From NCBI RefSeq assembly GCF_054482595.1, contig NZ_CM137008.1: a stretch of 64,000 nucleotides of DNA; one strand, given 5' to 3'. A program made the position numbers. Each line of letters starts with the position of its first letter. The stretch's first letter is position 1. Shown piece after piece: positions 36,201 through 42,200 of this stretch.

Positions 36201-39200
36201 GACGCAACATCCAGTAATATGCCATAATCCAGTGAGATAAAAGAATGGGCTGACCTGTTTGCAAATGAGTATAGCCTGGCATGATGACATTAATATTGTT
36301 TTCTGCTTTGTTAATTATTATTTTTTGCAGGTTGGTAATATCCTCTTGAATTTCACGGATAATTGCTCGCATATGCATTTTAGAATCAACAGTGGTTTGA
36401 TCATTACGACTTCGCCCCGTGTGGAGTTTACCACCAACAGGGCCAATAATTTCAGTCATCCGTCTTTCAATGGCCATATGAATATCTTCATCTACAGTAT
36501 CGAAAATGAATTGGCCGTCTTCAATTTCTTTACTTACTTGTCTCAAACCTCTAATAATTGTATTGGCTTCATCCTGTGTGATTATTCCCTGACGTCCTAA
36601 CATCGTGGCATGAACTATGCTTCCTTGAATATCAAAGGGGCATAGGCGCTGCTCCAGCGTGATAGTTGCATTATATTGTTCAACGAGTTTATTTGTTGGC
36701 ATATCAAAACGTCCGCCCCATAATTTCGTAGACATCCTCATCCTCCTGCTTATTCATAAGTAATTAGAAAAAATGTACCGGCTGGATTTAATATCAGGTT
36801 ATAAAATGATGTTGGCAATTGTCAACAAATGCGGCGATTAAATTGACTTATATTGCCATTAGTTTTAATCATTAAATCATAATGTTTGTTAATGTTTTAA
36901 TGATAAGCATGGAGATATACCTCACGTTTAACATGTTATTTGACGAGAAATATATTTAATAAATTCAATTATGCAAAAACATGAAAACAAGAGTTCAAAT
37001 GGGTCTTTGATAAAAGTCAAAAATTCTCTCTTTTCTTCTGCGTCAGATAACATCTAAGTTATCAACTCTTGTCTGGCGTCGGTTACTTTACGGTTATGAA
37101 TTATCTTATCCTAGCGATATTGAATTGATTCAAATAACAGGAAATGGTCGTAGTACAAAGGACAGAAAATGATGTTGATAGAAGTGATGGACAGCACATA
37201 AAATTATCGTAGGGTTGGCGGCGATCGTCCGGCAAATGCTATCGACGGTATTAAAACCCTGCACGAAATCGGCTTCGATACCCTCAAACTGAATGGTTGT
37301 AAAGAACTGGGGCTATTCGTGAAGCTTTTGGCAATCAGATTGAGTCTGGTCTTGATTTCCACGATTGCACCAGCGTGCTGATAGTGGTTGATAGTGAAAG
37401 CACGGATTAAAGAACTGGAACCGTATCGCGCGCTGTTTATTGAAAAGCCGGTGCTGGCGGAGCATGATGATGTGATTAAGCAGTCTGAAGAGTCAGAAAC
37501 TTACAGTTGTCTTTTAAGAGCACCTGCAGGATTGTTTCTCAGTTTCTGCCTGCTCTGGCATTACCCTATTTTTCCCATGTTGAATACGGATACGCCTGAG
37601 GACATTTTGTCTCTGTTGGGCACTCTTTGGCCTCGGGGAGTTACTGTTCGCTTACCGGATATGCCTGCCGTGCAGACCACAGGCTTACCTGGTTATTTGT
37701 TTGATCGCGTCCGGGGCCAGCGATGCGAAATAGTACGCTATGTTACCAGTGAGTTATTTGTCGGTGCGCGTCTTTGTAAATAAAGACTGGCGTTCATTGT
37801 TATGCATTGATCATTATGGCGAACAATTTACGTTTACGCGTACGTGACTATGTCATCACCCTGGCGGTACCCGTGTTCGTGACCGCCATGCTCTGTATGG
37901 CAGCGGTTATACTGTAGCGTTTTATCCTGATATGGGGTCCATCGAGTGTGTTGGCTATACCGATAGAAATTATCTTGTTAGCTTTCGTTCTGACATAACA
38001 TCATCAAATTAAACGAATTCTATTACACAACAAGGAGTGGGAGGATGAGTAATATCAGTTTGTATTGTTTGCCATATTCAGGTGGTTCTGCCGCTATGTA
38101 CTATAAATGGCGTAACGTGCTGTCGGACAATATTACTTTGAAGCCTTTAGAACCTGTGGGGAAGGGGAATGAACAATGATTTTTCCGCGAAAAAAATCCT
38201 GACGGGTGAGGATGTCCTGTGTGCGGCCGTTCACCGTATTGAGTGGTTGTTTGAGACATTTTCTTCTGTCTGTTTGTCTTTTTCCGGAGGAAAAGACTCT
38301 ACTGTGCTGCTCCATCTTACGGCCGATGTGGCTCGCAGGAAGAAACGTCGTTTCTCTGTATTATTCATTGACTGGGAAGCTCAGTACCAGTGCACAATTG
38401 CACACATTCTGAAGATGAGGGAGATGTATCGGGATGTGACGGAGACTTTTTACTGGGTGGCACTCCCCCTGACTACGGTAAACGGTGTCTCTCAGTTTCA
38501 GCCGGAATGGATATGCTGGGAACCAGGTGTGGAGTGGGTTCGTCAGCCACCAGATGACGCTATTACAGATATGTCGTACTTCCCATTTTATCGGTATGCC
38601 ATGACGTTTGAAGAATTTGTTCCGGCATTTTCTTCCTGGTTTGCCGGTAACCGGTGTGGAGTGGCAATACTGACTGGTGTTCGTGCTGATGAATCGCTCA
38701 ATCGCTTTGTGGGACTGGTGTCTCAGCGCAAACTGAGATATGCAGATGATAAACCCTGGACCACAGCGTCACCTGAAGGGTTTTATTACACCTTGTATCC
38801 GTTGTATGACTGGAAAGCTCGTGATATATGGATATATAACGCCAGAACCCGAGCTATCTACAATCCCCTGTATGACCTGATGTACCGTGCCGGCGTGCCG
38901 TTACGCAACATGCGGGTCTGTGAGCCTTTTGGCCCGGAACAGCGTAAGGGACTGTGGCTTTACCATGTTCTGGAGCCGGAAACCTGGGCCAGGATGTGTG
39001 AGCGGGTGTCGGGTGCTGCCAGCGGGGCGCTTTATGCCAATGAGAGCGGTGCCTATTTTGCCCTGCGTAAGCGTATCACGAAGCCACCTCATCATACCTG
39101 GCGTAGCTATGCGATGTTCCTGCTGGATGTGATGCCGGAAAGAACGGCAGAACATTACCGTAATAAAATTGCTGTCTACCTGCGCTGGTATCAGACGCGG

Positions 39201-42200
39201 GGCTTCCCGGATGACATCCCGGATGAACAGGAGAATGACCTGGGGAGCCGGGATATCCCGTCCTGGCGACGTATCTGTAAGACACTCATAAAGAATGATT
39301 TCTGGTGTCGGACCCTCTCCTTCAGTCCGAACAAACCCCGGCACTATGAACGTTATCTGCAGCGTATGAAAGAAAGGAGGAAGGAATGGGGGATTCTGTG
39401 ACACCTGAGGTGGAAGTATTGAGCAACATGATTCGACAGTACTTCAGTCAGGAACGATCTGAAGAAGAGACCATACGAGCCCTTAATCATCTGCGCAGGG
39501 TGTTGCATGAGGTCAGCCCTTTTGCACAGGAGCCTGTGGACTGTGTGTTGTGGGTGAAAGCGAATGAGGTGGTGGCCAACGATTACAATCCCAATGTCAT
39601 GTCTTCCAGTGAAAAAAAACTGCTTAAACATTCACTGGAGCAGGATGGATTCACGCAGCCTGTGGTGGTTTCGGAAGAGAAGGAGCATTATCTGGTAGTG
39701 GATGGTTTTCATCGTCAGTTGCTGGGCAGGAAAGCGGATACGAGAAAACGTCTGAAGGGCTGGCTGCCAGTGGCCTGTATTAATCCAGAGAGAAAGGGAT
39801 AGGCATCACGTATTGCCGCGACCATACGGCATAACCGTGCCAGGGGAAAACACCAGATAACGTCAATGTCTGACATTGTCAGGGACCTTTCGCGTCTGGG
39901 CTGGACAGATGAGCGTATTGGCACAGAGTTGGGCATGGATCAGGATGAAGTGCTGAGGCTCAAACAGATTAGCGGGCTGACAGAGCTGTTTCAGGAAGAG
40001 AATTTCAGCCCGGCATGGACGGTTCGTTGATATTGTAAAATATGATAATTGGAGTAGGGGACAATAGAAGGAGAATATTTATTCCACCTTCTTCCGCGTC
40101 GGGATAAATCAAAAGGTATTATCCATTGATTCAGTATCTGGGGGAGAGTAAATAATCTAAAAATAGTATTGCGTTGTGAACTGATATCACTTTTGAATTA
40201 CAAAGGTATAGGCTCAGTAGCCAGCTTTATAAGTCATTGTCGTAGCAATGAGTATAGAATCATGCTGGCGGGAAGAATAAATATTCATCTACAGATGGAA
40301 AACAACGACGAAAAACCTTCAACAAACACAATACGTTCGTTAGCCTGCCCGCAAAGCGGGCAGATCAGGACAAAGAATTCCATAACGATTGTTTTTGTCA
40401 TCAGAAATTCCATACAAAACCTATAGCTGCATTAAAACCTGCTGCAGGAATAGTTTCATGTGCTGTACGGTAGCGTTTGTCTGTCAGGTTATTGAGTGCC
40501 AGGTTAATCCGGTACTGATCCTCGTTACCGAATTCTGTATTTACTGCAAAGTTGAGAGTGGCCCAGCCCGGAATATTTGTTTCGGTACCGTTACTGTCAT
40601 CTTTTGCACTAGAGGCAGCACGAATAAAAACATCAGAGATTATGTTGGCCTGACCCATCACAAGAGTATGTTTCAGCCCTATACGTCCGTTTATCGCTGG
40701 TTCACCTGTATTAGTTGTTTTTAATGTTGAAGTTTCATATTGCCGACGAATTAAATTGCCACTGATATATGGCGAGAAAACCCAGCCATTATATTCTGCA
40801 CTTATTTCCAGTCCCCATGTTTTTGCCCGATCAATATTGTCATAATAATAGTAGCTACTACGGGAGGAGTTGGTGTTACCATTGCAAACTATACTGCCAT
40901 CACAGATCAGACTTGCAATATAATCTTTAGCTTCTGAGTAGTAAACTGCGCTGTCAATCAGCCACTGATTACCATTATATCGTGCACCTAATTCAAAGTT
41001 ATTGGAGTGTTCAGCCTTAAGATCAGGATTTCCGTATGTGACACTGCCGCCCGCAGATGTCTGCATAAAAAGCTGGGAGAGTGTGGGAAATACGTAGCCT
41101 TGCGCGAACGCAGCGCGTAACTCCAGGTTATCGAAACCTGAATAGCGCAGGCTTGTAGATGTTACCATTTCGTGATCACTCGCAGACTCTCTGGCAAGAG
41201 AGGTATCGCTTATAATGCCTGCGGTATATGATACTCCGTCACCACGCGTCAACTTTGAAGAAAGCCAGTATTGGCGAACTCCCATTGTCCATGTCCAGTG
41301 ATCGGCGAATTGCCAGTCATTTTGTGCGAATAGTGAGACTGTACTTTGCTCTGACTCATAATAGGAGCGAGTTCGTGTTTCCTTATTAATGAAGCCGGTC
41401 AGAGATTTGCTTGAGGTCATGCCACCGGACCTTTGGTTGACCCTGTCTTGTTTGTACTGTGCACCGGTAACAAGTTCATTATTAGCAGGCAGCGAAAAGT
41501 GACTCTGCAATGTGACCGCCTGAGTGTATTGCTTATCATGGGTGTCAGTCTTGTTATGAACGGTCAGAGCCTGAATCATCGGACTGGGAACAGGCTGTGT
41601 CGTTTTTACTTCGTTGGCAAATTGGCGCTGGATGGTCTGCTCATACGCGTCGAAATGAATTTTTTTAGATAGTCACCGTCCACGTCTGTGTCATAGAATA
41701 CCCCAACTTTCTCTCGTTCAAGTTTAGGTATTTTGACACTAAATGCCTCATAACTTCCGTCTGGATCCTCATAGTAAGTTTGTGTCGCGAGTCTGTAGCG
41801 ATCAAGCGAGAGGCCAAAACGATGGTTTCCGGAGTTATAACCCAACCATACACCCTGACTATTGTTACGATAGTTGGTATTCGGCAGACGTCCATCCGGC
41901 GTATCACGATTGCCCTGATCAGAATAACTACCGTTGATGCGATAATCAAATCCACCGATGCTCCCCTGGACCGCGATTGATTCTTCCCAGCCTGCTGTTG
42001 CGGAATTATAAACAGCTTTCACAACTCCAGATGCAAGTTTGTTACCTCCCTTTTTGGTGATGAAGTTAACAATACCGCCAATTGCCTGTGAACCGTACAG
42101 TACGGAATATGGACCTTTCACTATCTCAACACGCTCCAGCGCAGACTCATCTATCAACAGTCCCACACTATAATTATCTCCGGCGCGCTGATAAGTTACC

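Follow-up and report, generated by a model that had tools for sequence, protein, structure and literature searches.

The 64,000-nucleotide stretch of DNA analysed here (the window), taken from contig NZ_CM137008.1 of NCBI RefSeq assembly GCF_054482595.1, is part of an Escherichia coli chromosome and carries a chromosomal ibrAB locus, which lies beside a gene for a TonB-dependent receptor of the heme type and the cobUST genes. The pair consists of ibrA, which encodes a PP-loop protein related to phosphoadenosine phosphosulfate (PAPS) reductases, and ibrB, which encodes a ParB-like protein and is interrupted in the window by an amber codon. We conclude with considerable confidence that this is an ibrAB locus in which ibrB was recently inactivated, a reading that also takes in a proposed working of the intact module.

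The first gene, ibrA (38169..39401, plus strand), is intact and encodes 410 residues, in which an adenine-nucleotide alpha-hydrolase domain with the PP-loop motif SGGKDS is followed by a helical C-terminal domain, DUF3440. The ibrB frame opens with an ATG at 39386 and overlaps ibrA by 16 nucleotides (nt; 39386..39401), and a perfect Shine-Dalgarno sequence, AGGAGG, can be read inside the 3' end of ibrA (39375..39380, plus strand), 5 nt before this ATG, an arrangement in which translation of the two genes is probably coupled. The 5' part of ibrB (39386..39802, plus strand) comprises 138 codons and the premature TAG and specifies most of the ParB/Srx N-domain, with the motifs NDYNPN and DGFHR, as well as two helices at the N-terminus. 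The nonsense codon itself (39800..39802, plus strand) stems from CAG (Gln139) by a C-to-T change at 39800. What follows is a 3' remnant (39803..40030, plus strand) of 75 codons and a TGA (40028..40030) that is no longer translated and contains the sequence for the RHNRARG helix and the helix-turn-helix region. The chance that 75 codons stay open beyond a stop is about (61/64)^75 = 0.03, and the translation of these codons is one residue off the intact IbrB of E. coli Nissle 1917; the frame is open because it is homologous to intact IbrB and because there has been too little time for further decay.

The original prediction, made from the sequence of the window, had described the 16-nt overlap, the TAG and the 75 further open codons, all of which are present, and had likened the pair to IbrA and IbrB. 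This identity is borne out by RefSeq naming, by the Pfam domains PAPS_reduct and DUF3440 in IbrA, and by profile and fold comparisons that put IbrB in the ParB family. The segment 38000..40100 is 100% identical in many complete E. coli chromosomes, for example those of W2-5, SMS-3-5 and APEC37. In W2-5, RefSeq lists from left to right an argH-like gene, fragments of dgoD, ClbP and a thioesterase, a 'phosphoadenosine phosphosulfate reductase', a pseudogene of an 'IbrB-like domain-containing protein' (with the note 'internal stop') and a TonB-dependent receptor pseudogene ('frameshifted'), beyond which lie an IS4 fragment, cobU, cobS, cobT, ldtA and a tRNA-Asn cluster. Hence the stop in ibrB is already on record as a pseudogene flagged by the NCBI pipeline, and the case is an ordinary one. 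Copies of the ibrAB region (80-100% DNA identity) are found in 2,146 of 5,426 complete E. coli genomes, chiefly on the chromosome and in 79 places on plasmids. A promoter and terminator scan of 37300..40450 gave nothing exceeding the shuffled expectation, and literature searches for IbrA/IbrB returned, apart from the homonym 'iBRB' (inner blood-retinal barrier), annotation mentions only.

Origin and spread of the amber codon

The orthologous locus of Nissle 1917 contains intact ibrA (407 residues) and ibrB (214 residues) genes and, like that of the window, has cobUST and the receptor gene as neighbours, with the receptor gene also intact, whereas its left flank and roughly the first 18 codons of ibrA are unlike those of the window. 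Between the two ibrB genes there are 11 base differences (98.3% identity), among them T in the window versus C in Nissle 1917 at 39800. Strains MS6198 and CM2 share the architecture of the window's locus, with relics of colibactin (clb) genes and an IbrA of 410 residues, and they encode an intact IbrB, their ibrB genes being at least 99.7% identical to that of the window. Over 7,061 aligned bases CM2 differs from the window at four positions, of which 39800 is one, and at codon 139 Nissle 1917, MS6198 and CM2 all have CAG in place of the window's TAG. The 61-mer centred on the TAG has an exact match in 60 records of independent complete assemblies among the 5,426 complete E. coli genomes and is found with one or two mismatches, mostly one, in 218 further records; both of the one-mismatch records that were inspected, those of MS6198 and CM2, have CAG.

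Taken together, these alleles indicate that the TAG is a real and recent single C-to-T transition that is limited to a sub-lineage. An error of sequencing or assembly in an intact ibrB, which the original prediction had named among the outcomes that would undo it, could account for a codon that is a single base off intact alleles, but its probability is practically nil, since the identical allele occurs in 60 independent complete-genome records from varied laboratories, hosts and countries. The prediction had otherwise left two options, fresh inactivation or read-through, and it is the former that holds, given a single CAG-to-TAG change on a background near-identical to that of ibrB-intact strains.

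Under the second option the amber codon would be read through or suppressed, full-length IbrB would be made and the pair would be functional. In its favour, no further stop interrupts the 75 codons past the TAG, ibrA is intact, and an amber suppressor that inserts glutamine, as supE does, would give back the ancestral residue. However, the recency of the mutation (four differences in 7 kb against CM2) accounts in full for the open frame, and all 50 aligned IbrB relatives have a sense codon at residue 139, which is a variable position. In addition, the only tRNA genes in the 64-kb window are three for tRNA-Asn. RF1 terminates efficiently at UAG, natural or wild-type E. coli is not known to carry an amber suppressor, and no recoding signal is known in the IbrB family. 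Read-through is accordingly very unlikely, and the reading of the TAG as a recent inactivating mutation is retained.

Consequences of the stop for IbrB

What the stop removes was assessed with the repaired (Gln139) sequence of 214 residues, which was used in the domain and fold tests, and with an alignment of 50 full-length relatives (35-51% identity) drawn from 1,855 that were found at E ≤ 0.001 among 1.84 billion cluster representatives. In this alignment ten columns are invariant (N68, N70, L80, S83, D106, G107, R110, P128, N150 and G154), and the near-invariant columns include H149, A152, R153, G183, E188, R191, G197 and W211, all of which lie beyond the stop; in all, two of the ten invariant and eight of the 19 near-invariant columns follow residue 139. 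The motif RHNRARG (residues 148-154) and a conserved C-terminal pattern, LGM..DE..RLKQ..G..W, are both encoded 3' of the stop and are lost from the product, and the truncated protein thus keeps NDYNPN and DGFHR out of the full set of three motifs that marks the IbrB family.

In the AlphaFold2 model of the repaired protein, with a mean predicted local distance difference test (pLDDT) score of 91, Q139 opens a helix that spans residues 139-151, and further helices follow at 158-170, 175-182 and 186-201. The best Foldseek matches of this model in the PDB are Noc, ParB and KorB (E = 4e-7 to 1e-5), which align over 154-166 columns that cover the N-domain and the helix-turn-helix, and these are followed by sulfiredoxin and free serine kinase, which match over the N-domain only. 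The profile of the IbrB family matches the N-domains of ParB, Noc and Spo0J with E = 1e-6 to 1e-3, and IbrB matches PHROG 2159 with E = 1.6e-86. Repaired IbrB is thus modelled as a ParB N-terminal fold followed by a helix-turn-helix, in which DGFHR would stand in place of GERR in box II of ParB and HNRAR in place of ENLQR in box III.

The proteins ParB, Noc and KorB are CTP-dependent DNA clamps of the ParB/Srx superfamily, and the predicted fold of IbrB aligns with them over the N-domain and the helix-turn-helix. Unlike these clamps, IbrB, with its 214 residues, ends right after the helix-turn-helix and has no C-terminal dimerisation domain, and it has the family-specific NDYNPN and two extra N-terminal helices. 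As for a ParABS partition system, no ParA gene is present in the neighbourhood and there is no known parS, a site that was not searched for.

Because the RHNRARG helix and the helix-turn-helix follow the stop, the truncated protein would be without part of the nucleotide pocket and without the whole DNA-binding region. A working IbrA/IbrB module calls for two intact genes, and here ibrB has a TAG at codon 139; judging from the model, the product of 138 residues is most likely non-functional, and the ibrAB module is most likely dead in the TAG lineage unless a second genomic copy compensates. It could be argued instead that IbrB(1-138) keeps or has gained a function, for example by regulating IbrA without binding DNA or by acting in a dominant-negative manner, and that selection maintains the allele. 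Both NDYNPN and DGFHR and a strong ribosome-binding site are retained, the allele is present in 60 genomes of varied sources, and in one RefSeq record the truncated ibrB has an annotation of its own, 'ParB N-terminal domain-containing protein'. However, the cut lies inside the fold of the ParB N-domain, just before the RHNRARG helix, so that the nucleotide pocket is probably destabilised, clonal descent explains the spread of the allele equally well, and the adjoining receptor gene is decaying too. A functional truncation is therefore regarded as unlikely by comparison with a simple loss of IbrB.

The intact pair and its relatives

The protein IbrA (accession WP_001058035.1, the same protein in W2-5 and CM2) carries LSFSGGKDSTVLLH, and its PP-loop, SGGKDS, corresponds to residues 39-44. 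Pfam finds PAPS_reduct in two pieces (E = 8.6e-7 and 2e-6) and DUF3440 at residues 242-345 (E = 8.3e-25) and 359-390 (E = 2.1e-6), and the match to PHROG 2302 has E = 6e-83. The AlphaFold2 model (pLDDT 83), in which the first 13 residues are disordered, is matched by Foldseek to the PAPS domain of FAD synthase, CysH, APS reductase, CysD and TtuA over about 230-250 columns. The original assignment of an SGGKDS PP-loop protein to the PAPS-reductase superfamily is thereby confirmed by the open reading frame (ORF), by Pfam and by fold. In an alignment of 42 relatives S39, G41, K42, D43 and S44 are invariant, together with several Asp, Glu, Arg and Trp residues, and no cysteine is: C251 is Cys in 21 of the 42, and C380, in DUF3440, is Cys in 38, being the sole cysteine to reach that level. 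Since there is no invariant cysteine, IbrA would be without chemistry of the DndC or CysH type, and it is predicted to be an ATP-using PP-loop enzyme that is neither a reductase of the CysH type nor an iron-sulfur (Fe-S) enzyme like DndC or TtuA. Against NCBIfam all matches are below threshold and involve PP-loop models (CysH, CysD and PAPS reductase) and Noc, the CysH and PAPS-reductase models reaching 25-32 bits against cut-offs of 154-254, and searches of PDB sequences with IbrA and IbrB singly gave weak matches only, and it took the family profile and the fold search to place the two proteins.

That such pairs recur on mobile elements, as had been proposed, is well supported, as they are found in phages, on plasmids and on viral contigs. 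Relatives of IbrA are present in 224 phage records. In Escherichia phage PhiR5_2 a ParB-like gene lies directly beside the IbrA gene and overlaps it, in Streptococcus phage PY1 the IbrA-like and ParB-like genes overlap by 17 nt, and in Mycobacterium phage Marley1013 the pair is directly upstream of the terminase gene, with a second ParB-like gene at the end of the genome. A scan of IMG/VR gave 80 IbrA loci (30-94% identity), 71 of which have an adjacent ORF of the IbrB family on the same strand, in either order, while several of the remaining nine are cut by contig ends. On some viral contigs the upstream IbrB-type ORFs have about 390-430 residues and reach the start of IbrA. The viral modules have SNF2-type helicases, primase/helicase, endonuclease and Gam-like protein genes as neighbours, and in phages of the Firmicutes type a gene for an SNF2-type helicase directly precedes the pair. 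These arrangements support a two-protein unit of phage origin with a DNA-related setting. In the phage pairs (PhiR5_2, PY1 and Marley1013), which are homologous to that of the window and belong to PHROG 2302 and 2159, the two genes are neighbours on one strand and as a rule overlap; these pairs are situated in replication modules or by the terminase gene, whereas the copy in the window is a stand-alone chromosomal remnant with an inactivated ibrB.

Pairs of the IbrA-IbrB type abound in phages and mobile elements, their genes being tightly linked, and they are often mislabelled as 'cysH' or as a partition protein. True PAPS reductase (CysH) and the phage proteins called 'cysH' have the same alpha-hydrolase fold and PP-loop region as IbrA; unlike CysH, IbrA has no invariant catalytic cysteine, an extra DUF3440 domain and a steady linkage to a ParB-like gene. 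Phage 'cysH' genes with DUF3440 have been counted among auxiliary genes of sulfur metabolism (bioRxiv 10.1101/2021.01.05.425418). For the DUF3440 clade of phages this label is probably wrong, because no cysteine is invariant in the clade and its members almost always occur in linkage with a ParB-like gene.

A ParB-like protein is likewise paired with a DNA-modifying enzyme in DndB/DndC (DNA phosphorothioation) and in DpdA/DpdB (7-deazaguanine in DNA), and the original prediction had suggested a role of the pair in DNA modification or defence. If the pair in the window were an active anti-phage defence or DNA modification akin to Dnd or to BREX (bacteriophage exclusion) type 4, one could point to its resemblance to DndB/DndC, to the presence of the pair on mobile elements and to weak PADLOC matches of IbrA. 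However, PADLOC gives no match for IbrB, and those of IbrA are confined to the PP-loop region: the match to BrxP of BREX type 4 (E = 7.8e-6) extends over 70 residues in a profile of 779 positions, and that to DndC, itself a PAPS-reductase-like PP-loop protein, has E = 1.3e-3 and no single stretch that passes. There are no DndA, DndD, DndE or Dpd genes and no BREX genes (PglZ, BrxC etc.) near ibrAB, nor is there a cysteine desulfurase or restriction gene nearby. The absence of an invariant cysteine in IbrA leaves no Fe-S or persulfide site, ibrB is broken in the window, and the phage copies lie among replication genes, as would suit a role in the phage more than one in the defence of the host. 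Such a role for this copy is extremely unlikely, and at the level of sequence the IbrAB module matches no known defence family.

The sole phenotype reported for ibrAB is the activation of silent prophage eib genes (PMC7649339, citing Sandt et al., 2002). The eib-activating pair is like that of the window in belonging to the same two-gene family, in its RefSeq and SEED naming and in its overlapping genes. Compared with the ibrAB of the ECOR-9 island, the copy in the window is chromosomal, is located beside the TonB-dependent receptor gene and cobUST and has the Q139 amber codon in ibrB. In E. coli 042 (5724..5993 of the locus analysed) another allele of ibrAB (88% identical) lies within a type VI secretion region, upstream of a gene for a PerC-family regulator; in a transcriptome study of Shiga toxin-producing E. 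coli, ibrB and perC are induced together on cell contact.

For the intact module it is proposed that IbrB, as a ParB- or KorB-like protein, would bind nucleotide and DNA, that IbrA, which would be co-produced with it from the overlapping genes, would probably be in a complex with it and, as a PP-loop enzyme, would adenylate a substrate using ATP, and that the target of the two would be DNA itself or something bound to it, with a change in gene expression as the outcome. All these steps taken jointly are tentative and have slightly less than an even chance of being correct. A more far-reaching view is that intact IbrAB is a new nucleotide-dependent, DNA-targeted system of modification or counter-silencing, with a non-Dnd chemistry because IbrA is without conserved cysteines, and that the loss of ibrB was selected; this combination is given a small probability.

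Several points weigh against the conclusion that the locus is an ibrAB pair with a recently inactivated ibrB and against the working proposed for it. With Pfam alone the match of IbrB to ParB_N is weak (E = 0.004). The ibrA gene has stayed intact and does not differ from its counterpart in sister strains with an intact ibrB, which is expected if the mutation is recent, yet it gives no sign of relaxed selection. Some of the TAG genomes have a second ibrB-like place, and in such strains the function of ibrB may persist, while a low level of read-through of the UAG may also occur. In the mechanistic part, the complex, the substrate and the action on DNA are matters that we infer; what the analysis itself demonstrates are the identities of the genes, the folds, the conservation of the motifs, the linkage of the two genes and how the stop codon arose. 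The copy in the window itself matters little, as it is a lineage-specific pseudogene, already flagged, amid decaying accessory DNA. The near-isogenic CAG and TAG strains, such as CM2 with its four single-nucleotide polymorphisms in 7 kb, are possible natural controls for the function of the module.

Decaying flanks and other features of the window

Directly to the left of ibrA lie two relics of colibactin genes. The first is the 3' end of the peptidase gene clbP (37827..37998, plus strand), with 147 of 172 positions identical to CFT073 and a 15-nt deletion, and the second comprises the first 41 codons of the thioesterase gene clbQ (38045..38167, plus strand), with 114 of 121 positions identical to CFT073. 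The segment 37827..38168 runs from the 3' end of clbP across the intergenic spacer into the start of clbQ, and its identity to the pks island of E. coli, which is otherwise highly uniform, is about 87%. About 204 complete genomes carry this relic with at least 99% identity, and a contig scan with a 50-mer that is common to the clbQ relic and canonical clbQ found the pks island of Klebsiella pneumoniae only. A 44-codon ORF (38045..38179) abuts ibrA, and the homology to clbQ stops at about 38165-38168, approximately at the ATG of ibrA, while the N-terminus of phage-type ibrA aligns from 38191. The left flank of Nissle 1917 is unrelated, and its homology to the window starts at about 38222. The left junction appears from these alignments to be a scar of recombination or deletion in a decaying variable region. 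The thioesterase-like fragment that had been noted beside the pair is thus real, abuts ibrA and is part of a clbP/clbQ relic, but the insertion of ibrAB into an older locus, which it had been taken to suggest, is not shown. A chimeric origin of the ibrA N-terminus from clbQ was also considered and was rejected, as the clbQ homology ends at about 38165-38168 and the phage-type ibrA homology resumes by 38191. Farther to the left, RefSeq places an internal fragment of dgoD (galactonate dehydratase) and a frameshifted fragment of a hypothetical gene at 37205..37823.

On the other side of the pair the gene for the TonB-dependent (heme-type) receptor, presumably an orthologue of hma/yoeA, is a pseudogene (40401..42547, minus strand) that is split into ORFs at 40401..41579 and 41606..42574 and is labelled 'frameshifted' in RefSeq. 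The frameshift is the loss of one base from a T8 tract (A8 on the coding strand), which leaves T7 at 41660..41666 (plus strand), also in CM2; in MS6198 and Nissle 1917 the tract is T8 and the gene is intact. Because the frameshift is already present in CM2, where ibrB is intact, the receptor gene decayed before ibrB.

Elsewhere in the window there are three tRNA-Asn (GTT) genes at 47648..47723 (minus strand), 50057..50132 (minus strand) and 51881..51956 (plus strand). The tRNA-Asn cluster is the usual integration hot spot of the pks and yersiniabactin islands, and no site appears occupied. Relative to W2-5 there is a 1,331-bp insertion at 31172..32502, which is regarded as a copy of IS2 because its ORF of 301 residues (31586..32491) passes the cut-off of the IS2 transposase TnpB model, with 710 bits against 597. 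An inverted repeat of 768 bp with 99.5% identity (16426..17193 and 58004..58771) has the length of IS1. Finally, an inverted duplication of 1,451 bp with 99% identity (2775..4225 and 23627..25077) contains an ORF of 466 residues in each copy, the second of which is annotated by RefSeq as an aspartate ammonia-lyase gene and is located in a block of C4-dicarboxylate transporter, asparaginase and argH-like genes.

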